In this document: piece by piece, positions 1,664-12,628 of the stretch
Position numbering within the stretch: position 1 is the first letter of the stretch
Layout: every line of letters starts with the position of its first letter
Virus genome (UHGV): UHGV-0076425
Direction: 5' to 3' (one strand)
DNA length: 15,862 nt
Source of the DNA: a virus
Notes under the pieces: model-generated
Databases searched by the model: none
What the model was told of the DNA's origin: nothing
The model's input: only the letters and a program-made list of their open reading frames with translations
Program-made: the position numbers and the translations under genes

Positions 1664-1810
1664 TCACACAACACTCAGCCCACGGCAGTGGCAACACACT
1701 TCAAACATTCGCTTCACAACTTCACGACAGTAGAAGCCGTCAACATCTCGCGTCAGGTCATAGCGATTGCCGTAACGCTGGTGGACCCATCGTTCAAATG
1801 CTTTATTCAT
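1664..1810 (-). CDS. Hypothetical small protein (48 aa, Cys-rich C terminus CCHCRG)
   Basis: Not in the ORF track (under 60 aa). ATG at 1810 preceded by AGGAAG; TGA stop overlaps the Shine-Dalgarno of xis, suggesting translational coupling; fills an otherwise unexplained gap in a tightly packed operon. Confidence 0.4.
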   Translation of the reverse strand: MNKAFERWVHQRYGNRYDLTRDVDGFYCREVVKRMFEVCCHCRGLSVV

Positions 1811-1813
1811 TCT

Positions 1814-2056
1814 TTACTTCCTTTTTATGGCTCGTAATTTTTTCAGGTGCTTTTCCTGCTCAGTGTCCGCGAGAATTTTGCGGTACTCCTGGTGGTCAAT
1901 ATGTTCGAACAGGCAGTTTAACTCACCAATGCGTACCCGCCCGGATCGTCCGTCCATCCGTCGAAAGAACACTGAGTGCTCAGTGATGCGAGTAATCACC
2001 ACGGGGTATCCGGCTCTGTCCGTGTATATCTGACCGCGTTGAATCAAAGCGAACAT
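1814..2056 (-). CDS. Hypothetical phage protein (80 aa)
   Basis: The ORF track gives 1814..2092 from a TTG; the internal ATG at 2056 has a GGGGAT Shine-Dalgarno 6 nt upstream; packed head-to-tail with neighbours. Confidence 0.45.
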   Translation of the reverse strand: MFALIQRGQIYTDRAGYPVVITRITEHSVFFRRMDGRSGRVRIGELNCLFEHIDHQEYRKILADTEQEKHLKKLRAIKRK

Positions 2057-2140
2057 GTGGTTATCCCCATCGACAAATCGAGAACACAACAAACGCTGCT
2101 GCGAATACCACCCCCAGAGTTACGATTGCATCAGGCCAGC

Positions 2141-2899
2141 TCATTGATTCACCTCCTGCCTGTCGTCCGGCATTCGCTCACTACAGCTTATCCAACCATC
2201 CGGAGTTACCGGAGAGTTGCCCGATAGTGCATTCTGCTCCAGTGATGCTTTTACAAACCACGCTGCCTGAACTATAACGCCATGAATCCAGCGCAAATCA
2301 GCATCGCGATCTTTCTTTTTCATCTTTTCGCCACTTAAGGCCTTGCTTATGTGGCTGCGTACCAGGTCTTCATGTAATTCCTTCGCCTCCTCAATGGTGA
2401 AACCACCAGGCAGAAGAGCCGGAGTTACCGGAGAGCTGGTTGACGCTTCCGGGATTTCCCGAAAATTATTGGTTGACGAATTCTTGCTTTCCCGAAAGTT
2501 TCCGGACTGAAGCATGGCGGTGCGGCAGGCGTTCCATATTTCGGCAGCAATATCGCGCTCGCTATCGGTTAATTTGTACGTGGAAACATAGCCAGAGAGC
2601 ATTTCTACGTTTTCCGGAGTTGCTTCTTCCGGCACTACCGGCGCTGGCGGGGCGGCAAATAGATATCCGCCAAAGTCAGGAAGCTCTCCAATGGCCTGTA
2701 CGAACTTTTGTTTGCCTACGTCAACTCCTAATGGGTAATGAGCTATAATCTTTGCCACCGGCTCTGCTTCCAGCGATACCAGTGCAATTCGTGCCAGTTC
2801 TTCCGCTTCTTCTGCTGGCAGTACAACGTTGCTACCCGGTCCGTATGTTTCGCGCCACTGCTTGATTGTCAGCAGTCGCCCTTTGGTAATAGTGATCAT
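2141..2899 (-). CDS. Hypothetical phage protein with internal sequence duplication (SPVTP repeats); C-terminal WIS...P motif reminiscent of DUF551
   Basis: 252 aa ORF; start ATG overlaps the stop of the upstream gene (ATGA); contains a 17-bp exact direct repeat at 2200..2216 and 2419..2435. Confidence 0.6.
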   Translation of the reverse strand: MITITKGRLLTIKQWRETYGPGSNVVLPAEEAEELARIALVSLEAEPVAKIIAHYPLGVDVGKQKFVQAIGELPDFGGYLFAAPPAPVVPEEATPENVEMLSGYVSTYKLTDSERDIAAEIWNACRTAMLQSGNFRESKNSSTNNFREIPEASTSSPVTPALLPGGFTIEEAKELHEDLVRSHISKALSGEKMKKKDRDADLRWIHGVIVQAAWFVKASLEQNALSGNSPVTPDGWISCSERMPDDRQEVNQ

Positions 2900-3411
2900 G
2901 CCGCGTTTCCTTCTTTCTTATTAACAATCACACCGTCATATATTTCATTAAGGTGCCCTCTCAACTCCATGCGCCTTAATGCAGATAACATGTAATCGCA
3001 TTCAACCTGCTTATTCCCAGTAAATGGCTTATCGTCAGGATTACCCCAACAGCAATTACCCCTGGGCCATCCATGTACTTTCCGTACTCTTCCGTTAACA
3101 ACGTGAAGTAATCCCCAGCCGGGAGGTAAATCCTCAACTGAAATAATTTCCGGCTCACTAATAAAGAATCGCCAGTCGCCCATGCCAAGTGAGGGATTTT
3201 TACGGAAACGCTTTTTTCTATCTGCCAACAAGTCAGCACGAGAACACTTCGCCTCTATCAGGCATGATGCTGAATTTCTGAATCCCATAGCATCTGGCTG
3301 TTCTCCGGTACTGGTTACAGCAACAAAGCGGTCATAAAAGCAAACCTTGAACCCGTTGCGCTTAAGGAACTTGTACGCAATCTGACAGAGTTCGTGGTGT
3401 GTTAACGCCAT
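2896..3411 (-). CDS. Putative PD-(D/E)xK-type nuclease-like protein
   Basis: Track ORF 2896..3444; the ATG at 3411 is preferred because AAGGAGAG lies 6 nt upstream. Motif PD-x15-IEAK fits the PD-(D/E)xK catalytic signature; Cys/Trp-rich C-terminal segment. Confidence 0.5.
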   Translation of the reverse strand: MALTHHELCQIAYKFLKRNGFKVCFYDRFVAVTSTGEQPDAMGFRNSASCLIEAKCSRADLLADRKKRFRKNPSLGMGDWRFFISEPEIISVEDLPPGWGLLHVVNGRVRKVHGWPRGNCCWGNPDDKPFTGNKQVECDYMLSALRRMELRGHLNEIYDGVIVNKKEGNAA

Positions 3412-3412
3412 A

Positions 3413-3961
3413 TCACTCTCCTTTGATGCGAATGCCTGTTGCAATGCTGTTTATGATGCTGTCAGTGCATGGGGTAGAAAGCTGGGCATCTCCAGCAATT
3501 TTCATGACCTCAACATCTGCATATCGAATACCGAGGTGTATCAGACCGGCTATGCCTGACTTAAGCCGAGCATTTTCCATAAATAGAACTTTTGCCCGCT
3601 GTTTTTCTGCTTCAAGCTCAACACGCAGCTTCCCTACCGTTAGCGCAATATCCTCGTTCTCCTGGTCACGGCGTTTGATGTATTGCTGGTTTCTTTCCCG
3701 TTCATCCAGCAGTGCCAGCACGGTAGCCGGGTTAGCCTCTGCTATGAATTCAGCGTTTGCATAAGCCTGAGCATCTGATTCAATCAGGCAGTTAACATGA
3801 CATTCCGCAATCACGCCACCGGGTTCTCCTTTCCATTTTTGACAAACAAAAACTCCTGTTAAATTGCCGTGTTGGTTAACAGATGTATGCCCTACGATGT
3901 AGCTTCCTTTAGTTGCTTTCTCTGCCTTTTCACGCAGTACCTGATAGTTAATGTTGCTCAC
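3413..3961 (-). CDS. Ea22-like early-left phage protein (coiled-coil central region)
   Basis: 182 aa; GTG start at 3961 with a strong AAGGAGG Shine-Dalgarno 6 nt upstream; central charged heptad-like region (LLDERERNQQYIKRRDQENEDI...). Family assignment is from memory of ead/Ea22-like proteins. Confidence 0.5.
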   Translation of the reverse strand: MSNINYQVLREKAEKATKGSYIVGHTSVNQHGNLTGVFVCQKWKGEPGGVIAECHVNCLIESDAQAYANAEFIAEANPATVLALLDERERNQQYIKRRDQENEDIALTVGKLRVELEAEKQRAKVLFMENARLKSGIAGLIHLGIRYADVEVMKIAGDAQLSTPCTDSIINSIATGIRIKGE

Positions 3962-4197
3962 TGGTTGCCTCCTTTACGGATCTGCGCTGCGATGCACGAA
4001 AAAAAAGACTTTCGCGTATGACTGTTAAGAGCTGGCGCGAACGCCGCGTTAAGAACGGCGGCATCACAGCCGTCATCGATATAGAGCGCAATTTTTTTCT
4101 CCAGGCGTGCTTTGGCTTCCTGCAACTGCATATCCCGGCACGCACGCGGGATATACTCAGCAATTTGAGCGATAGATTTTTCGTTCTGTTTAAACAT
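3958..4197 (-). CDS. Hypothetical small phage protein (79 aa)
   Basis: ORF overlaps its neighbours by a few nt on both sides, consistent with an operon; no recognisable domain. Confidence 0.45.
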   Translation of the reverse strand: MFKQNEKSIAQIAEYIPRACRDMQLQEAKARLEKKIALYIDDGCDAAVLNAAFAPALNSHTRKSFFSCIAAQIRKGGNQ

Positions 4198-4393
4198 GCT
4201 TCACCTCGATAGGCTTGATGGTATCGATCAGCAGTCGGCGGCGAGTATTTTCTGCAAAGTGGCGGCGTCCGGTTTCTTTGTGGTAAAACTCGTTTTTTCC
4301 GACGACCCACATCCGCTTTGTCTGGTGCAGTTTTTTTACCTGCGGACCGTCTCGGGTGATAACAATTCCTGTATGAGTTTTTATCACGCTCAT
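4190..4393 (-). CDS. Hypothetical small basic phage protein (67 aa)
   Basis: ATGA overlap with the upstream gene stop; basic composition; no recognisable domain. Confidence 0.45.
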   Translation of the reverse strand: MSVIKTHTGIVITRDGPQVKKLHQTKRMWVVGKNEFYHKETGRRHFAENTRRRLLIDTIKPIEVKHV

Positions 4394-4752
4394 TTTTTAT
4401 TCTTCGGTGCTTTCGGCATTACTGCCCAGTGAGTGATATTGACGTTTTCAAGGTCCCCGACCTGAAATGTCCACTGCCATTCTCCGGTTTCTTTTTGTCC
4501 CCAGGTGTACCAGAGAGAACGCCAGCCAATCAGCCAGCCTTCTCCATTAGCATCAAATAACAGAACACTTTCATTTGCTGGCGGCAGTTCAGCTGACACT
4601 GGTATTACTTTGTTTTCCAGTGCTGTACATTTAGCTTCAAGCGCATCGAATTTACGTACCAGGTATTCAGCATCTGTTTCATTCACTTTCAGATCTCGCG
4701 GTACACATCTCCCACGAAGAAACCCTTCCATTTCGAAAACATTCATGCGCAT
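4390..4752 (-). CDS. Hypothetical phage protein, DUF551-like C terminus (THW..P.P)
   Basis: 120 aa ORF; the second in-frame ATG (4746) overlaps the stop of the HD gene (ATGA) and may be the true start; Trp-rich C-terminal motif. Confidence 0.55.
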   Translation of the reverse strand: MRMNVFEMEGFLRGRCVPRDLKVNETDAEYLVRKFDALEAKCTALENKVIPVSAELPPANESVLLFDANGEGWLIGWRSLWYTWGQKETGEWQWTFQVGDLENVNITHWAVMPKAPKNKK

Positions 4753-5279
4753 TTGCGTAACTCCGATAACTCGTTAAAACGTTCCATAAACATCCCGTAG
4801 GCATGGCCCGGTGCCTGTGGAATCACTTTGAACATCTCTGTTGCCGGGATACCTTCCAGTACAGGCCAGAAAGAGCCATCATCAAGCCCGAGATCGCGGC
4901 GTTCGGTTGCCAGCATAATGAGATCGGCATATTTCACTGGCGTGCTCATAACAGGAGGTAACCCGTATTTCTCACGGATTACGGCGTCTATTTTTTCTTC
5001 CATCCGTTTATAGTCAGGAAGAAGGCGTTTCAGTGGAGCAGGGATGTCCTGGCAATACGCTTCTGTTGCATCATGCATTAACGCTTCAAAAGCAAATTCC
5101 TGCGGTACCAGCTGGCTGCAAAGCACCGCATGTTGGGCGACGCTGTAGAAGTGCGAAAGATGACCGGCAAAGCGACAGATATTTGAAAGGGAAACCGCGA
5201 TATCGTTAATATCGATGTCGTCTTTATTTATCTTGTCATAATAAAAATGTTTCCCGGAAAAAGTCTTAATAAATGACAT
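4743..5279 (-). CDS. HD-domain metal-dependent phosphohydrolase
   Basis: Track ORF 4743..5348; the ATG at 5279 is preferred (GGAGAA Shine-Dalgarno 7 nt upstream). Motifs H..H (HLSHFYSVAQH) and HD (MHDATEAY) plus a downstream Asp match the HD superfamily metal-binding pattern. Confidence 0.7.
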   Translation of the reverse strand: MSFIKTFSGKHFYYDKINKDDIDINDIAVSLSNICRFAGHLSHFYSVAQHAVLCSQLVPQEFAFEALMHDATEAYCQDIPAPLKRLLPDYKRMEEKIDAVIREKYGLPPVMSTPVKYADLIMLATERRDLGLDDGSFWPVLEGIPATEMFKVIPQAPGHAYGMFMERFNELSELRKCA

Positions 5280-5321
5280 TTTGTTCTCCATGTTATATGC
5301 GCTGCACCGCTCTGAATTTTG

Positions 5322-5371
5322 ATTGCAGCAATCCAGCCCATTTGACATGGGATGATTGCTGCAATTTTTTT
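5322..5371. other. Perfect 12-bp inverted repeat (ATTGCAGCAATC / GATTGCTGCAAT) with nested 5-bp stem, followed on the plus strand by T7
   Basis: Read directly from the sequence in the 90-bp gap between the rdgC-like stop and the HD gene start; looks like a plus-strand intrinsic terminator, or an mRNA hairpin or protein-binding palindrome. Confidence 0.5.
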
Positions 5372-6287
5372 AAGTTGTTGGATTTTGGCTTTTATCTTCT
5401 TTGTAAGAAAGAAGGTCACACATCAAATTAACTACCTTGCTGAATTGGAAAAGGTCAGTGCCAGTCTGATGACGCCACTGGAATGCTTTATCATCTTCAT
5501 CATTAAATGTCTGAGATTGAGTATTGATGCGCGAAAAATGGAAATTTTCGGTAAGAATGAAGGTCACACCGCAACCGGATAACTCCATTTTATCAGCAGT
5601 GAAACTACTACTAAGGCTATCGGCCAGTTCGCTTTGAATTGACTCATGCTCAGCTGAGTAGCGAATAATTTCCTTTTGATCTGCGTAGCGTGATAGCTGA
5701 ATATAATTCCCGACAGTGAATCCTTCAAATGCATTGGCTGCACCATTGATGTAGTTCTTCAGGCGTGTAGTCAGTCCATTCTTGATATCACTGATGTTGA
5801 TTGTTTCTGTTTTTACTGAACCGACAACCTTAATCAGCATTGCGCATACCATACCGGCTATTATTTTATTGGTTGTGTTGATTACCAATAATTTCTCATC
5901 AGTGCTGTACAATACAAGAATCAGCGTAGACTTAACAAATGCCTGTTTGCATAGATCTACTCGTACGTTATCAATAATGGCCAGTCGTTCGGCACGCTTT
6001 AATTTATTCCCGGACATATTTTCGATTGTTTGGATTCGAGAATTAGCTTCTTTCATGACGACATGTCGGGGAATTATTTTCTGATCATGACGGATTACCA
6101 TTGCGTACCCACCAGATATCGGAGTTACCAGTTCACCAGTGACAGGATTCTCTACAAAAGAGGACCGTGAAAATTCTGTTTCCCCGATTTCAGAATAAGG
6201 GAGTTCGAGAAGATGCCCTTCAATAGCCTGTATACTAGGTAATGTTGCTCGGTACACAATTGCGTTACGAAATTTTGGTAATTTCAT
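5370..6287 (-). CDS. rdgC: RdgC-like recombination-associated protein
   Basis: Track ORF 5370..6443; start chosen at the ATG at 6287 (GAGGAAAA Shine-Dalgarno). This gives about 305 aa and an N terminus MKLPKFRNAIVYR that parallels E. coli RdgC (MLWFKNLMVYR); the longer ORF would run through the upstream terminator and hairpin. Confidence 0.7.
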   Translation of the reverse strand: MKLPKFRNAIVYRATLPSIQAIEGHLLELPYSEIGETEFSRSSFVENPVTGELVTPISGGYAMVIRHDQKIIPRHVVMKEANSRIQTIENMSGNKLKRAERLAIIDNVRVDLCKQAFVKSTLILVLYSTDEKLLVINTTNKIIAGMVCAMLIKVVGSVKTETINISDIKNGLTTRLKNYINGAANAFEGFTVGNYIQLSRYADQKEIIRYSAEHESIQSELADSLSSSFTADKMELSGCGVTFILTENFHFSRINTQSQTFNDEDDKAFQWRHQTGTDLFQFSKVVNLMCDLLSYKEDKSQNPTT

Positions 6288-6321
6288 TCTATTTTCCTCT
6301 GCACAAGATATTAGTTTCTCC

Positions 6322-6410
6322 ACAAAACAGAGAAGAACACCTGCGGTGGCAGCCGCCCGGATGGATTGGGTTATGAGCCCGTCGTCCGGTGATGCTCTTC
6401 TCTGTTTTGT
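6322..6410 (-). promoter_or_regulatory. Long-range perfect 15-bp inverted repeat (ACAAAACAGAGAAGA ... TCTTCTCTGTTTTGT, 59-nt spacer) immediately upstream of the rdgC ribosome-binding site
   Basis: Seen in the sequence; would form a large stem-loop in the leftward transcript between the leader terminator and the first early-left gene. Confidence 0.5.
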
Positions 6411-6457
6411 AAAAAGAGCGGTACCAGCCGGAAGCAAGGGCACAAACTGGTACCGCC
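6411..6457 (-). terminator. Intrinsic terminator within the leftward leader (tL-like)
   Basis: Minus-strand RNA: GCGGUACCAG, 20-nt loop, CUGGUACCGC, then UCUUUUU; 10-bp GC-rich perfect stem with a U-tract. Confidence 0.55.
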
Positions 6458-6878
6458 AAAGCAGTGGCTGTTGTGGTGACCGGTGCTGATCTCCGGCTTG
6501 CGGTTATTTCAGACTCTCACGGGCGTTTAATTGCCCCGCCGAACAGCTCTTTTCCGCAATAGCTGCAATGTCTTTCGCGCATCAGCCTGCGCATTCACCA
6601 CAACGCTGAGAGCACTTAGCCAGTTACGGCACCACACTTTGTCGCGGTTCCATAAATGCCCTCATCGTTGCACCCTGGTCTCTTCCAAGGTGTCAAACCG
6701 AACCGCCACGCTGGTTAGGCGTCTTATCAGCATCATCATTGCCTTGCACATTCCGGCTACCTGGTTTGTTTGCTCGAGCAAGGAGTGGATTGTCCCCTTT
6801 AACGTCACCAGACCGCTAACGACGCATGTGCCATACGCCGTGTTACAACCAAATTTTGTTTTAATCTTGCCTGTGTTA

Positions 6879-6905
6879 TGTTTCTTTTAGATACATTATG
6901 TATCT
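6879..6905. promoter_or_regulatory. Left operator: 17-bp palindrome AGATACATTATGTATCT overlapping a TGTAT-N7-GTACA site
   Basis: Dyad symmetry seen in the sequence; the half-sites match the two TGTAC-N7-GTACA sites in the cro-repressor intergenic region; sits in the spacer and -10 of the leftward promoter. Confidence 0.6.
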
Positions 6906-6912
6906 CATGGGT
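6885..6912 (-). promoter_or_regulatory. pL-like leftward early promoter
   Basis: Minus strand -35 TTGACA (6912..6907), 16-nt spacer, -10 CATAAT (6890..6885); immediately downstream of the repressor terminator, as pL is placed in lambda. Confidence 0.6.
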
Positions 6913-6916
6913 ACAT

Positions 6917-6937
6917 TGTCAAGTATAAAAAAACCTG
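6917..6937 (-). terminator. Intrinsic terminator of the repressor gene
   Basis: Minus-strand RNA: CCUGC-UUCG-GCAGG followed by U7, about 25 nt after the repressor stop codon. Confidence 0.7.
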
Positions 6938-6961
6938 CCGAAGCAGGTTCATAAATATTGA

Positions 6962-7636
6962 TTAGGCCTTTATTGTGTATCTTCTTGGTTTTCCCGAGAA
7001 AATCACTGTACCAATTATAGAGCAATTACCGTTAATCTTAATGTAAGGCTCAGGCCAGTTTGGGTTTAATGCTTTGAGATAACGCTGTGTTCCATCTTCT
7101 ATCAATCGCTTGAAGGTGGTTTCGCCTGTATCGTGCATCAATGCAATAACGTCGTCACCGTGGCAGGCAGGGACTTCGGGATCAACAAAAATCATGTCTC
7201 CAGGGCGGTACTCATCAATCATTGAATCACCAATCACCCGCAAGATATAAGTCATTTCGCCACAGGGTACAGGGCAGGGATACGTTTCTGCTGTGCTCAA
7301 ATCAACCTCAGAATAGCCAACTTCTTTCCATGCTCCGGCCTGTACCCATGATATGACAGGGACTAACGTTATTTGTTTGTTAGTGATTGAAACATCAGGT
7401 TTTTTTGTGATGTTCGTTGTCTGGTGTTCTTGATCAAGCCATCCGACAGGCAGGTCGAAACATTTTTCGATGTGCCGTGCCATGCTGTCACCGATATTTT
7501 TAGTAGCGCCATCCCCCATAAACCTGCTGGTTTGGGTTGGCTCGCGATCAATCATGGTGGCAAAGGATGAATTTCCGCCAACACCATCTCTCAGTTTTCT
7601 GGCGTTAGACCGCCGGATGTCATGGATTGTTTTCAT
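6962..7636 (-). CDS. cI: CI-like prophage repressor with C-terminal S24 (LexA-type) autopeptidase domain
   Basis: 224 aa; C-terminal GDSM (Ser nucleophile) and a downstream Lys; candidate RecA-stimulated cleavage site VQAG-AW paralleling lambda CI VQAG-MF; divergent from the cro-like gene. Confidence 0.9.
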   Translation of the reverse strand: MKTIHDIRRSNARKLRDGVGGNSSFATMIDREPTQTSRFMGDGATKNIGDSMARHIEKCFDLPVGWLDQEHQTTNITKKPDVSITNKQITLVPVISWVQAGAWKEVGYSEVDLSTAETYPCPVPCGEMTYILRVIGDSMIDEYRPGDMIFVDPEVPACHGDDVIALMHDTGETTFKRLIEDGTQRYLKALNPNWPEPYIKINGNCSIIGTVIFSGKPRRYTIKA

Positions 7637-7653
7637 AACGAAATTAAAACCTT

Positions 7654-7720
7654 TGTACCGATAAGGTACAAGTATCTTGAAGGTTCATTTCAATCATGTA
7701 ATATGTACACCGGAGGTACA
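7654..7720. promoter_or_regulatory. Right operator region: two TGTAC-N7-GTACA sites (7654..7670 and 7704..7720)
   Basis: Two perfect copies of the 17-bp dyad in the 90-bp divergent intergenic region; the second overlaps the -10/start of the rightward promoter. Confidence 0.65.
7677..7704 (+). promoter_or_regulatory. pR-like rightward early promoter
   Basis: -35 TTGAAG (7677..7682), 16-nt spacer, -10 TAATAT (7699..7704); GGAGG Shine-Dalgarno follows before the cro-like ATG. Confidence 0.45.
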
Positions 7721-7726
7721 TATTGT

Positions 7727-7927
7727 ATGAAAGCGTATTGGGACTCTTTAACCAAAGAACAGCAGGGCGAGTTGGCCGGAAAAGTTGGCTCAACACCTGG
7801 CTACTTACGGCTGGTTTTCAATGGTTATAAAAAAGCCAGTTTTGTGCTGGCGAAAAAACTTGAGCAATGCACGTCAGGTGCAATTACGAAATCTGACTTA
7901 AGACCGGATATCTATCCGAAAGATTAA
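7727..7927 (+). CDS. Cro-like HTH regulator (YdaS family)
   Basis: Track ORF 7622..7927; start chosen at the ATG at 7727 because the longer ORF would cover the operators and promoter. 66 aa, first rightward gene opposite the repressor; C-terminal DLRPDI motif recalled from YdaS-type proteins. Confidence 0.65.
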   Translation: MKAYWDSLTKEQQGELAGKVGSTPGYLRLVFNGYKKASFVLAKKLEQCTSGAITKSDLRPDIYPKD

Positions 7928-7958
7928 CAGAACACCTTCAATTTTTAACCACAGAACG

Positions 7959-8528
7959 ATGAGGCTAACCGTGGGTAAGTATCACTGGAAAGTAGAAAAA
8001 CAGCCTGAGTGGTACGTGAAAGCTGTCAGAAAAACTATCGCAGCGTTGCCGGGTGGTTACGCTGAAGCAGCTGACTGGCTGGATGTAACAGAAAACGCAT
8101 TATTTAACCGCCTTCGTGCCGATGGCGATCAGATTTTCCCGCTGGGATGGGCAATGATTTTGCAACGTGCTGGTGGAACTCACTTCATTGCTGACGCTGT
8201 GGCGCAGTCTGCAAATGGCGTCTTTGTGTCTCTTCCTGACGTCGAGGATGTGGACAACGCCGATATTAACCAGCGTCTGCTGGAAGTCATTGAACAGATC
8301 GGCAGTTATTCCAGACAGATTCGTTCAGCAATCGAAGACGGTGTAGTGGAACCGCATGAGAAGACAGCAATTAACGACGAGCTGTACCTCTCAATTTCGA
8401 AGCTCCAGGAGCATGCAGCACTGGTCTACAAAATCTTCTGCGCTCCAGAAAATAGTAACGCCCGCGAGTGTGCAGCTCCGGGCGTCGTGGCGTCGATTGC
8501 TTCTGGTTGTGGAGAAACTAACGCATGA
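7959..8528 (+). CDS. CII-like regulator (YdaT family) candidate
   Basis: 189 aa ORF second in the rightward operon; family assignment from position and memory only; alternative GTG start at 7971 has a better GAGG Shine-Dalgarno. Confidence 0.45.
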   Translation: MRLTVGKYHWKVEKQPEWYVKAVRKTIAALPGGYAEAADWLDVTENALFNRLRADGDQIFPLGWAMILQRAGGTHFIADAVAQSANGVFVSLPDVEDVDNADINQRLLEVIEQIGSYSRQIRSAIEDGVVEPHEKTAINDELYLSISKLQEHAALVYKIFCAPENSNARECAAPGVVASIASGCGETNA

Positions 8529-9673
8529 ATAGTTTAACGGCAAATAACCGTTTGTCGCAACAGCTGGTGGTCAGCGTCGCTGAACACCTGTTGTTACGGC
8601 ATGAATGCAGATTACCAAATCACCTGGCTGTAAGTAACCACAGAGAACTTTACCTGACTGTGGGGGGCGAGTTGTGCAGGAACTTAACCGCTGGTTTCGT
8701 GACGGAAGAGGACTTTATGTTCATGTTATTCGTTGGGAGCCAGAAACACAGCGCGTTATCTATCTTCGCAAAGACTACCAGCATGAGTGCTTTAGTCCTT
8801 TGTGGAAATTCAGGCGTGATTTTGTTGAGTGTGAAGGACCACCAGCACATTGATTCTGCCATTCCGGGACGTTACACTGTTCAGGCACCTTATAAAGCGG
8901 GTGTCGGGATTGGCGTCCTGGAATTGCATACGGCGACAATTGGCGCGTTAGCGTCTTTTTTGTTGCTACAACTCAGCTATACCCAAATTATGGTGGGCTG
9001 GGTGGGGGCACCGAAAGGTGCGCCGGTTTCCGTATGCGCCGGTTACGCCAACCCTGCTCAGTTCACCACCAGCGAAATTGGCGTTTCCGGTGGTGGAAGT
9101 TATCCATTGCATACGGAGGCTGCCATCATGGCTACGATCCCAACCCTCACTCAACCTGAAATTGCCATCGTTGATGGTCAGGCTGTTACTTCATCCCTGG
9201 CTGTTGCCAACTTCTTCTCCAAACGTCATGACGATGTACTGAAAAAGATCCGCACGCTTGAATGTTCCGCATCATTCACTGCCCGCAATTTTTCGGTGAG
9301 TGATTACACCGATTGCACAGGCCGCAAACTACCTTGCTATCAAATAACCCGCGACGGCTTTGCGTTTCTTGCTATGGGTTTCACGGGTAAACGTGCTGCC
9401 CAGTTCAAAGAGGCATACATCAATGCCTTTAACCAGATGGAAAAACTGCTTTCAAAGCCATCCACGCTGAGCGATGCCGCAGATAACGCCAGCGTGCTTT
9501 ACTCCCACCTGTCGGTAATCCACAAGGTCTGGCTGCAGCAGCTTTATCCCATGTTGGCAAAAGCCGAATCCCCGCTGGCTGTAAGTCTGTATGACCGCAT
9601 CAACGACGCGGCGCTACTGGCCAGTCTCATAAATTTGTCGCTGAACCCTTCAGAGGTAAGGGGGCGCAAATGA
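8525..9673 (+). CDS. Rha-family phage regulatory protein; true start uncertain (alternative ATG at 9128)
   Basis: Rha-domain signature (VTSSLAVANFFSKRHDDVLKKIRTL...) lies at residues ~205-300 of the 382-aa ORF; Rha domains are normally N-terminal, so the ATG at 9128 (GGAGG 8 nt upstream) may be the real start. The upstream 600 nt are stop-free in this frame and the ATG at 8525 overlaps the preceding stop (ATGA). Confidence 0.55.
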   Translation: MNSLTANNRLSQQLVVSVAEHLLLRHECRLPNHLAVSNHRELYLTVGGELCRNLTAGFVTEEDFMFMLFVGSQKHSALSIFAKTTSMSALVLCGNSGVILLSVKDHQHIDSAIPGRYTVQAPYKAGVGIGVLELHTATIGALASFLLLQLSYTQIMVGWVGAPKGAPVSVCAGYANPAQFTTSEIGVSGGGSYPLHTEAAIMATIPTLTQPEIAIVDGQAVTSSLAVANFFSKRHDDVLKKIRTLECSASFTARNFSVSDYTDCTGRKLPCYQITRDGFAFLAMGFTGKRAAQFKEAYINAFNQMEKLLSKPSTLSDAADNASVLYSHLSVIHKVWLQQLYPMLAKAESPLAVSLYDRINDAALLASLINLSLNPSEVRGRK

Positions 9674-11661: not shown

Positions 11662-12314
11662 TGAGTAATAAATATTGCCAGGCGCTGGTGGAACTACGGA
11701 ACAAACCAGCCCATGAACTGAAGGAAGTGGGCGATCAGTGGCGCACGCCGGACAACATTTTCTGGGGAATTAACACCCTGTTTGGCCCGTTTGTTCTGGA
11801 TCTGTTTACTGACGGTGATAACGCCAAATGTGCCGCGTATTACACGGCGGAAGACAACGCGCTGGCACATGACTGGTCAGAACGTCTTGCGGAGCTTAAA
11901 GGTGCTGCCTTTGGTAATCCCCCGTACAGCCGCGCCAGTCAGCATGAGGGACAATACATCACCGGCATGCGTTACATCATGAAGCATGCCAGTGCCATGC
12001 GTGATAAAGGCGGGCGCTATGTTTTCCTGATCAAAGCGGCCACCAGCGAAGTGTGGTGGCCGGAAGATGCAGATCATATTGCTTTTATTCGCGGGCGTAT
12101 TGGTTTTGAACTGCCAGCCTGGTTTATCCCGAAAGACGAAAAGCAGGTGCCAACAGGTGCTTTCTTCGCTGGTGCTATTGCTGTTTTCGACAAGACCTGG
12201 AAGGGAGCGGCAATCAGCTACATCGGGCGCGATGAACTTGAGGCATGTGGTGAGGCATTTCTGGCGCAGGTTCGCCAGCAGGCGGAAAAACTGGTCAGGG
12301 AGATGGCGGCATGA
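11661..12314 (+). CDS. dam: Phage N6-adenine DNA methyltransferase (Dam-like)
   Basis: Catalytic NPPY motif (FGNPPYSRA); start chosen at the ATG overlapping the upstream TAA (TAATG) rather than the track start at 11628. Confidence 0.8.
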   Translation: MSNKYCQALVELRNKPAHELKEVGDQWRTPDNIFWGINTLFGPFVLDLFTDGDNAKCAAYYTAEDNALAHDWSERLAELKGAAFGNPPYSRASQHEGQYITGMRYIMKHASAMRDKGGRYVFLIKAATSEVWWPEDADHIAFIRGRIGFELPAWFIPKDEKQVPTGAFFAGAIAVFDKTWKGAAISYIGRDELEACGEAFLAQVRQQAEKLVREMAA

Positions 12315-12628
12315 CGACATTAACTCAATGCCAGCAGCAGGTGCTGGATATGCTGATTTCTTATCAGAAAGAACGTGGCTTCCCGCCAACCAATCAGGAG
12401 GTGGCAACCATGCTGGGATACCGTTCGGTGAATGCAGCGGTGGAGCATCTTCGCGCACTGGAGAAAAAAGGTGTCATCACGATAAAGCGTGGCGTGGCCC
12501 GGGGTATCACTCTTCATACCGCGGTGAAGGACGACGACAGCGAGGCGGTCGGGATTATCCGCGCCCTGCTTGCCGGTGAGGCAAACGCCAGGCTGCGTGC
12601 AGCCCACTGGTTACATGAGAGGGCCTGA
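12311..12628 (+). CDS. LexA N-terminal DNA-binding-domain protein lacking the S24 peptidase domain
   Basis: 105 aa; aligns by eye along residues 1-70 with the E. coli LexA N-terminal domain (G-PPT, LG-RS-NAA-EHL-AL-KGVI, RGI-L); no Ala-Gly cleavage site or Ser/Lys peptidase domain follows; ATGA overlap with the dam stop. Confidence 0.8.
   Translation: MTTLTQCQQQVLDMLISYQKERGFPPTNQEVATMLGYRSVNAAVEHLRALEKKGVITIKRGVARGITLHTAVKDDDSEAVGIIRALLAGEANARLRAAHWLHERA

Follow-up and report, generated by a model that had tools for sequence, protein, structure and literature searches.

A phage-borne RdgC homolog at the predicted head of the leftward early operon of a Chi-rich lambdoid prophage

What is a homolog of RdgC, a protein that moderates RecA in Escherichia coli, doing beside the repressor gene of a temperate phage that has no recombinase of its own? 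The question is raised by UHGV virus genome UHGV-0076425, from which we analysed a stretch of 15,862 nucleotides (nt) (15.9 kb; hereafter the window) in which a lambdoid E. coli prophage has its integration, early and immunity genes. An earlier, sequence-only reading had placed the gene (5370–6287) at the head of the early-left operon, in place of a Red-type recombination module, and had proposed that, with a LexA-domain protein encoded elsewhere in the prophage, it forms a second module acting on the RecA/LexA axis. Our results show that rdgC is a discrete low-GC cassette heading a repressor-controlled leftward early operon. Its product could be a DNA-encircling moderator of host RecA early in lytic growth, a reading that we favour tentatively and regard as possible rather than probable.

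Identity and divergence of the phage RdgC

The gene and its translation signals are the following.

5370–6287, minus strand: rdgC-like coding sequence of the phage type, 305 amino acids (aa), GC content 39.9% against 46–51% in the flanks
6287–6285, minus strand: ATG start codon of rdgC
6295–6300, minus strand: Shine-Dalgarno sequence AGAGGA of rdgC, 7 nt 5' of the ATG

Homology to RdgC was borne out by the Pfam profile PF04381, which gave a significant match (E 1.6e-30; 106.8 bits against a cut-off of 25) spanning residues 6–270 of the protein and positions 3–268 of the 298 in the profile, by a full-length match to phrog_724 (E 1.7e-77), and by phmmer comparison with E. coli RdgC (2OWL), which aligned residues 6–256 (E 2e-9). 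The start at 6287 and the N-terminal similarity were upheld as well, since the homologs are likewise 305 aa long, align from residue 1 with a coverage of 99–100%, and have in common the N-terminal consensus MK...IKNAIVYKA.LP. A longer reading frame beginning at GTG 6443 was rejected, because homolog lengths and the N-terminal alignment give it no support; coding in this frame would, in addition, cross a conserved RNA hairpin (see below). The predicted monomer has the base, centre and finger/tip domains of the family and can be superposed on solved RdgC, with finger helices at residues 74–92 and 98–115.

All of the NCBIfam models NF001460–NF001465 match the protein, although far under their cut-offs (at best 87.8 bits against 227), and the other models of this set score 29–87 bits against cut-offs of 324–501. 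Because every one of these models matches but falls so far short, the protein is best placed in a diverged subfamily and, by this measure, is not an equivalog of chromosomal RdgC. Together with the structural model, the comparisons show a complete RdgC-fold member of a diverged, phage-borne subfamily. When proteins are clustered at 50% identity, this subfamily comprises 122 cluster representatives at E <= 1e-30 and 821 at E <= 1e-3. Some homologs (P0109, P0111, P0112 and P0119; 37–39% identical, about 376–385 aa) have an added FtsK-gamma winged-helix domain (PF09397), as would suit a subfamily that binds DNA.

Key residues of the fingertip, gate and horseshoe, as defined by mutation in Briggs et al. 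(PMC2965237), were mapped onto the window protein through the phmmer alignment. E. coli RdgC needs the fingertip residues R97, K98, K100 and K101 for loading on circular DNA (PMC2965237). The corresponding residues here are N94, K95, K97 and R98, so that three of the four are kept as basic, and there is an extra basic fingertip residue, R101 (family consensus G.KLKK.ER). At this low level of identity, the alignment equates the gate residue F120 with F117, which is kept, and R118 with Q115; in the horseshoe network, aligned with the same limitation, E218 is kept as E220, while Q212, H222 and K227 are replaced by H214, S224 and F229.

Transcriptional control of rdgC

The regulatory features between the repressor gene and rdgC, and those on the other side of the repressor gene, are listed here.

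6962–7636, minus strand: cI-type repressor gene, product with S24 autocleavage domain
6923–6950, minus strand: intrinsic terminator of the cI transcript, with an 8-bp stem, UUCG loop and T-run, after the cI stop at 6962
6895–6922, minus strand: pL-like sigma-70 promoter TTGACA-16-CATAAT, 11 of 12 matches
6878–6916: oL, two adjacent operator-like palindromes, ATGTATCTCATGGGTACAT at 6898–6916 and the weaker ATGTTTCTTTTAGATACAT at 6878–6896
7653–7721: oR region with the perfect operators TTGTACCGATAAGGTACAA at 7653–7671 and ATGTACACCGGAGGTACAT at 7703–7721, upstream of cro

Allowing at most one mismatch, the motif TGTAC-N7-GTACA has three copies in the window, two in the cI–cro interval (7654–7670 and 7704–7720) and one in pL (6899–6915), where the operator ATGTATCTCATGGGTACAT is located between the -35 and -10 hexamers. 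We therefore predict that 6878–6922 is a classic oL/pL. Between pL and rdgC (6288–6890) we found no other consensus-like promoter. Nor does the leader of about 600 nt hold a credible open reading frame (ORF): among the 15 ORFs of at least 20 aa that it contains, none on the minus strand has any match, the sole match being that of a plus-strand fragment to residues 88–127 of the 162 in phrog_3651, a PHROG without assigned function, and this leader has no small protein in common with those of LLS and the Yersinia and Morganella phages. An N-like antiterminator encoded in the leader was considered and rejected, with no matching minus-strand ORF and an empty tblastn search with lambda N. Because oL/pL follows the cI terminator and neither a further promoter nor a credible ORF separates it from rdgC, the first protein encoded by the pL operon is predicted to be RdgC, and the gene is placed outside the immunity (cI) transcript. 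In this respect the sequence-only reading, which had made it the first gene of the early-left operon, holds as far as protein genes are concerned.

The arrangement recurs in relatives. In the Klebsiella phage ST101-KPC2phi6.3, the Yersinia phage YeP2 and the Morganella phage IME1369_02, whose RdgC proteins are 38–67% identical to that of the window, the interval from cI to rdgC likewise has a consensus-like promoter, and in the Klebsiella and Morganella phages this promoter comes after an intrinsic terminator. YeP2 (L005, positions 4677–5107) has a tandem duplication of about 250 bp that includes the 3' end of cI, the terminator and the pL-like promoter and that results in two copies of TTGACA-18-TACATT upstream of rdgC. 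As a wider sample we used 80 IMG/VR contigs, falling into about three clades, whose RdgC is 66–100% identical to the window protein. In 73 of them an S24 repressor gene lies upstream of rdgC on the same strand, at a distance of 297–2592 nt (median 856).

These findings bear on a proposal that is already in print, namely that lambdoid RdgC homologs, encoded immediately to the left of cI, may share its transcript and act in the manner of RexA (Zheng et al. 2025; PMC12315714). On this view the protein would be expressed along with the repressor and would bind DNA to modulate the switch between lysis and lysogeny, or would act in exclusion. Lambda RexA is indeed a distant structural relative of RdgC (PMC11077077), and rdgC adjoins cI on the same strand. 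However, an intrinsic terminator (6950–6931) and oL/pL (6878–6922) stand between the two genes; the model contains the finger helices, whereas the RexA-type fold has no finger domain; and at the fingertip and gate the basic residues K95, K97 and R98 (three of four) and F117 are kept from RdgC. A RexB-like partner is also lacking, the next gene being yfdR, and tblastn searches with RexA and RexB were empty in the 80 contigs. We consider a RexA-like role distinctly unlikely on these grounds, although a variant in which the protein locks the switch after induction would be compatible with them. The placement of rdgC under oL/pL is new and is contrary to the published suggestion that it lies inside the cI transcript.

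Recombination functions and Chi sites

No Red, RecET or Erf-type gene was found among the 12 leftward ORFs with Pfam and PHROG, in agreement with the sequence-only reading, which had noted the absence of exo/bet/gam or RecET-like functions from this operon. Chi sites are distributed as follows.

Plus strand, Chi at 1777, 8169, 8563, 10874, 11684, 12935, 14239, 14510, 15527 and 15841
Minus strand, Chi at 8839, 9066 and 12040

The 13 sites (10 on the plus strand and three on the minus strand) compare with about 2.4 expected and with a maximum of nine in 1000 third-order Markov simulations, and they are nearly absent from the leftward operon (1778–8168). The window thus fits the 'no Rec module / high Chi' class already described in print, which is defined by the lack of a Rec module and by at least eight Chi sites in one orientation with few in the other (PMC12315714). 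Phages without a Rec module make up about 22% of lambdoid phages; they have many oriented Chi sites and are proposed to depend on host RecBCD, and growth of LLS, the type phage of the class, is enhanced by RecBCD (PMC12315714).

The same traits accompany rdgC in its close relatives. Within 10 kb of rdgC, tblastn with a panel limited to seven proteins (lambda Exo, Bet and Gam; Rac RecE and RecT; HK022 Erf and Abc2) detected a homolog of Red, RecET, Erf or Abc2 in none of the 80 contigs. Their combined length of 1.10 Mb contains 710 Chi sites, and the strand opposite rdgC carries 88% of these. That all 80 related viral contigs are Chi-rich and without Red, RecET or Erf homologs is a new observation, and it is an association and not a statistical proof, because of the small protein panel and the grouping of the contigs in about three clades.

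The idea that RdgC stands in place of a Red-type module did not survive these comparisons. Lambda has N next to pL and its Rec module in the middle of the operon (PMC12315714); in mEp460, ST64B and LLS, the slot taken here by rdgC, between the same leader and the same yfdR, holds yfdP/yfdQ-type genes; and the Rec-less, Chi-rich condition is the published state of a class of lambdoid phages (PMC12315714), as said above.

Alternatively, RdgC could substitute for Gam, its ring threading onto the ends of linear phage DNA and slowing or blocking RecBCD. RdgC is toroidal and can bind duplex DNA that is linear (PMC2965237), and the phage has no known anti-RecBCD gene, neither Gam nor Abc2. Nevertheless, since phages of this class are proposed to exploit RecBCD by way of abundant oriented Chi sites (PMC12315714), blocking the enzyme would defeat their strategy, and RdgC is not known to stop RecBCD. 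Such a role in end protection or RecBCD control therefore seems to us very improbable.

The rdgC cassette

The slot occupied by rdgC is bounded on its downstream side by the following elements.

4743–5279, minus strand: yfdR-type gene for an HD-domain 5'-deoxynucleotidase, the next gene of the operon after rdgC
5322–5365: perfect inverted repeat ATTGCAGCAATC / GATTGCTGCAAT, with 12-bp arms and a 20-nt loop, at the left homology break of the cassette

The cassette extends over about 5322–6310, with sharp homology breaks against other phages at about 5321 and 6311, and yfdR is kept whether the slot upstream of it holds rdgC or yfdP/yfdQ. Read on the plus strand, the inverted repeat is followed by TTTTTTT and would terminate antisense (rightward) transcripts. 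Near-identical loci in complete E. coli genomes carry the PGAP name 'rdgC: recombination-associated protein RdgC', adjoining yfdR. They are rare: in only 20 of 5,426 complete E. coli genomes is 80% or more of the 1.7 kb surrounding rdgC present, and any RdgC homolog at all is found in 192 of 50,697 phage records.

A discrete, low-GC and rare cassette with sharp borders, interchangeable in its slot with the unrelated genes yfdP/yfdQ, would be in keeping with accessory cargo that has nothing to do with recombination, for example a nucleoid-binding host-takeover protein, a counter-defence protein, or one that masks a trigger of host defence. It is also relevant here that overexpression of E. coli rdgC has been listed as one trigger of a retron toxin/antitoxin system (bioRxiv 10.1101/2020.06.22.160242). 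Against such a role stand the conservation of the RdgC fold and its finger and the consistent occurrence of the gene in genomes that are Chi-rich and Rec-less. Neither RdgC nor YfdR nor the genes beside them had a PADLOC match, and an assignment to defence or anti-defence was accordingly rejected. On balance we regard a cargo function apart from recombination as unlikely.

A conserved RNA in the pL leader

Transcripts from pL have to traverse a long leader before they reach rdgC, and its structured elements are given below.

6417–6457, minus strand: leader hairpin 1, GCGGUACCAG...CUGGUACCGC, 13 bp
6421 (start), minus strand: boxA-like sequence CGCUCUUUUUACAA, after leader hairpin 1
6318–6415, minus strand: conserved three-way-junction RNA with which the pL leader ends 3', outer stem of 23–25 bp
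6295–6309, minus strand: small hairpin CCUU/GAGG
6813–6840, minus strand: stem-loop CGGCGUAUG-GCA-CAUGCGUCG, just 3' of pL

One inner arm of the three-way junction has the loop GGG-CUCAUAA-CCC, the sequence of the anticodon arm of initiator tRNA, whereas the other arm varies. Folding of the leader's 3' part is very stable, at -80.4 kcal/mol (z -7.4). Across 20 diverse leaders, analysed with RNAalifold and pair counts, 98.6% of the cells in 41 pairs are paired, against 45–57% when the partners are slid; compensatory change occurs at seven pairs, and the covariation score exceeds those of all 500 shuffles. Rfam has nothing at E <= 1 in the region, and ARAGORN makes no tRNA call on the leader hairpin. 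Because the leader RNA is 96–98% identical in mEp460, SfV and Stx2 phages, all of which are without an RdgC homolog, it belongs to the leader and not to the rdgC cassette. The small hairpin pairs with the rdgC Shine-Dalgarno sequence in all 20 leaders (98.8% of cells paired), so that translational masking of this site is possible.

A core of about 50 nt of the leader RNA appears in a different setting in Klebsiella phage GZ7 (L007, 3010–3080), directly after genes for tRNA-Asn and tRNA-Arg and downstream of Q. There it is closed by an acceptor-like stem GGCCUG...CAGGCC plus ACCA, forming a tRNA-like element without a D-arm and without an ARAGORN call.

The leader RNA may be an N-independent antitermination or processing element of this phage group. 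LLS is without N, and a put-like RNA has been guessed at by Zheng et al. (PMC12315714). The stem-loop at 6813–6840 is kept in ST101-KPC2phi6.3 with a compensatory change. Its stem CGGCGUAUG/CAUGCGUCG shows only a short resemblance to the stem CGGCGCGU/AUGCGUCG in the HK022 pL–nun interval, in which putL lies (L011, about 770–800). Neither fold stands out (z 0.39 and -0.76), and a second copy 3' of pR was not found, so that this stem-loop is at most a weak candidate for a put-like element.

The LexA-domain protein and the remaining genes

The other protein that had been drawn into the RecA/LexA axis is encoded about 6 kb away from rdgC, in the nin region of the rightward operon.

12311–12628, plus strand: gene for a LexA-DNA-binding-domain protein, 105 aa, PF01726 winged helix only, phrog_362

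No S24 cleavage domain was found in this protein, and therefore it cannot sense RecA or be cleaved in response; expressed from the nin region, it could bind LexA boxes while resisting cleavage. We see no link between this protein and rdgC, and the proposed second module acting on the RecA/LexA axis thus turns out to be speculation.

The remainder of the window has the layout of a lambdoid prophage.

50–1363, leftward: int
1419–1655, leftward: xis
7728–7927, plus strand: cro, following oR

Beside int and xis lie small leftward genes (DUF4222, DUF551-like and Ead/Ea22). Rightward, cro is followed by a cII-like ymfL, an Ash/Rha-type regulator, replication genes, PerC and Dam, and further on by the LexA-DNA-binding-domain protein, RusA, KilA-N, DUF968 and Q. 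The Ash/Rha-type gene (8525–9673, plus strand) encloses strong Rfam matches to isrK (8885–8961, 58.9 bits) and to C4 antisense RNA (8986–9073, 80.7 bits), a combination that resembles the P1/P7 immI antirepressor control unit, here in a lambdoid prophage.

Discussion

The reading that we favour tentatively, that of an early lytic moderator of host RecA, would work as follows. In the uninduced lysogen no RdgC should be made, to judge from the layout, since the cI transcript would stop at its own terminator and an operator covers pL. Upon repressor cleavage or infection, RdgC would be made at once, provided that transcription passes the long structured leader. If the biochemistry of E. coli RdgC is a guide, a dimer ring would then load on duplex DNA by means of its basic finger, and its occupancy of the replicating phage DNA in an SOS-induced cell could restrain RecA, chiefly opportunistic loading of the RecFOR type and strand invasion, leaving Chi/RecBCD-directed recombination, including RecBCD-loaded RecA, available. 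E. coli RdgC moderates RecA in vitro and counters RecFOR-dependent loading in vivo (PMC2965237). Selectivity for RecFOR-type loading over RecBCD-loaded RecA is our own inference and the weakest step of the scheme. That the phage depends on host recombination is supported by the lack of a Rec module, the excess of Chi, the absence of Rec homologs from all 80 contigs, and the parallel with P1, which is Chi-rich and RecBCD-dependent (PMC12315714) and encodes an RdgC homolog, HrdC, that is 21% identical to the window protein.

Several points weigh against this interpretation. The protein is only about 17–19% identical to E. coli RdgC and, as described, stays far below all NCBIfam cut-offs; RecA antagonism, modulation of the SOS response and end protection, all raised in the sequence-only reading, are extrapolations from that distant relative. 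With the gate arginine replaced by glutamine and the horseshoe kept at one position only, ring geometry or affinity may differ. In vitro, RdgC is a general inhibitor of RecA strand exchange, which would oppose a phage that needs RecA and RecBCD. Most phages of the same class have yfdP/yfdQ in the slot of rdgC, so RdgC is not required for this lifestyle, and P1 hrdC was non-essential in a CRISPRi screen (PMC10695390). Expression of rdgC is conditional on pL transcripts getting past the leader hairpins. Finally, our literature search found no experiments on any phage RdgC, and returned only annotations, the CRISPRi call for P1 and one transcriptome mention.

A more specific and bolder version, which we consider quite doubtful, is that phage RdgC is a dedicated accessory for borrowing the RecBCD-Chi-RecA pathway of the host. 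As the first product of pL, it would coat phage duplex DNA and, through suppression of RecFOR-type loading, of SOS signalling or of ectopic invasion, direct RecA action to Chi-activated ends. In function it would then match the regulatory side of a Rec module, and lambdoid phages and P1 (with HrdC) would each have acquired it on their own. If phage RdgC does tune host RecA, this would account for the way in which temperate phages that are rich in Chi and have no recombinase keep host recombination productive once the SOS response is induced, and would provide a clear in vivo role for a poorly understood protein family. That phages carry RdgC was already known from annotation (PGAP, PHROG 724, P1 HrdC), and lambdoid early-left homologs have been discussed (PMC12315714). 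The refinement suggested by our analysis is that rdgC is an early lytic (pL) gene and not a RexA-like gene expressed in the lysogen, and that it is tied to Chi-rich, Rec-less genomes.

Among known systems, the window protein is a direct member of PHROG 724. E. coli RdgC (2OWL) and Pseudomonas aeruginosa RdgC (2OWY) are products of chromosomal housekeeping genes, whereas the window gene is phage-borne and repressor-controlled, and its product, unlike the E. coli protein, is mostly without the horseshoe-interface residues and scores below all NCBIfam RdgC cut-offs. The lambdoid RdgC genes of Zheng et al. (PMC12315714) occupy the same place just left of cI, but we place the window gene under oL/pL, downstream of the cI terminator, and not in the cI transcript. 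Lambda RexA (8TWQ), a distant structural relative and non-specific DNA binder, is likewise encoded beside cI on the same strand; the Rex system, however, lies in the cI (pRM) transcript before the immunity terminator and has RexB as a membrane partner, whereas window rdgC comes after the terminator. Like P1, the window prophage is Chi-rich and without a general recombinase, although the genomic context of HrdC differs from that of window rdgC. The closest parallels are LLS, ST64B, mEp460 and SfV, which have the same succession of repressor, leader, first gene and yfdR and the same leader RNA. LLS-type phages and the window are alike in having no N homolog, no Rec module and abundant, strand-biased Chi sites, and they differ in that LLS-type phages carry yfdP/yfdQ or other small genes where the window prophage has rdgC.
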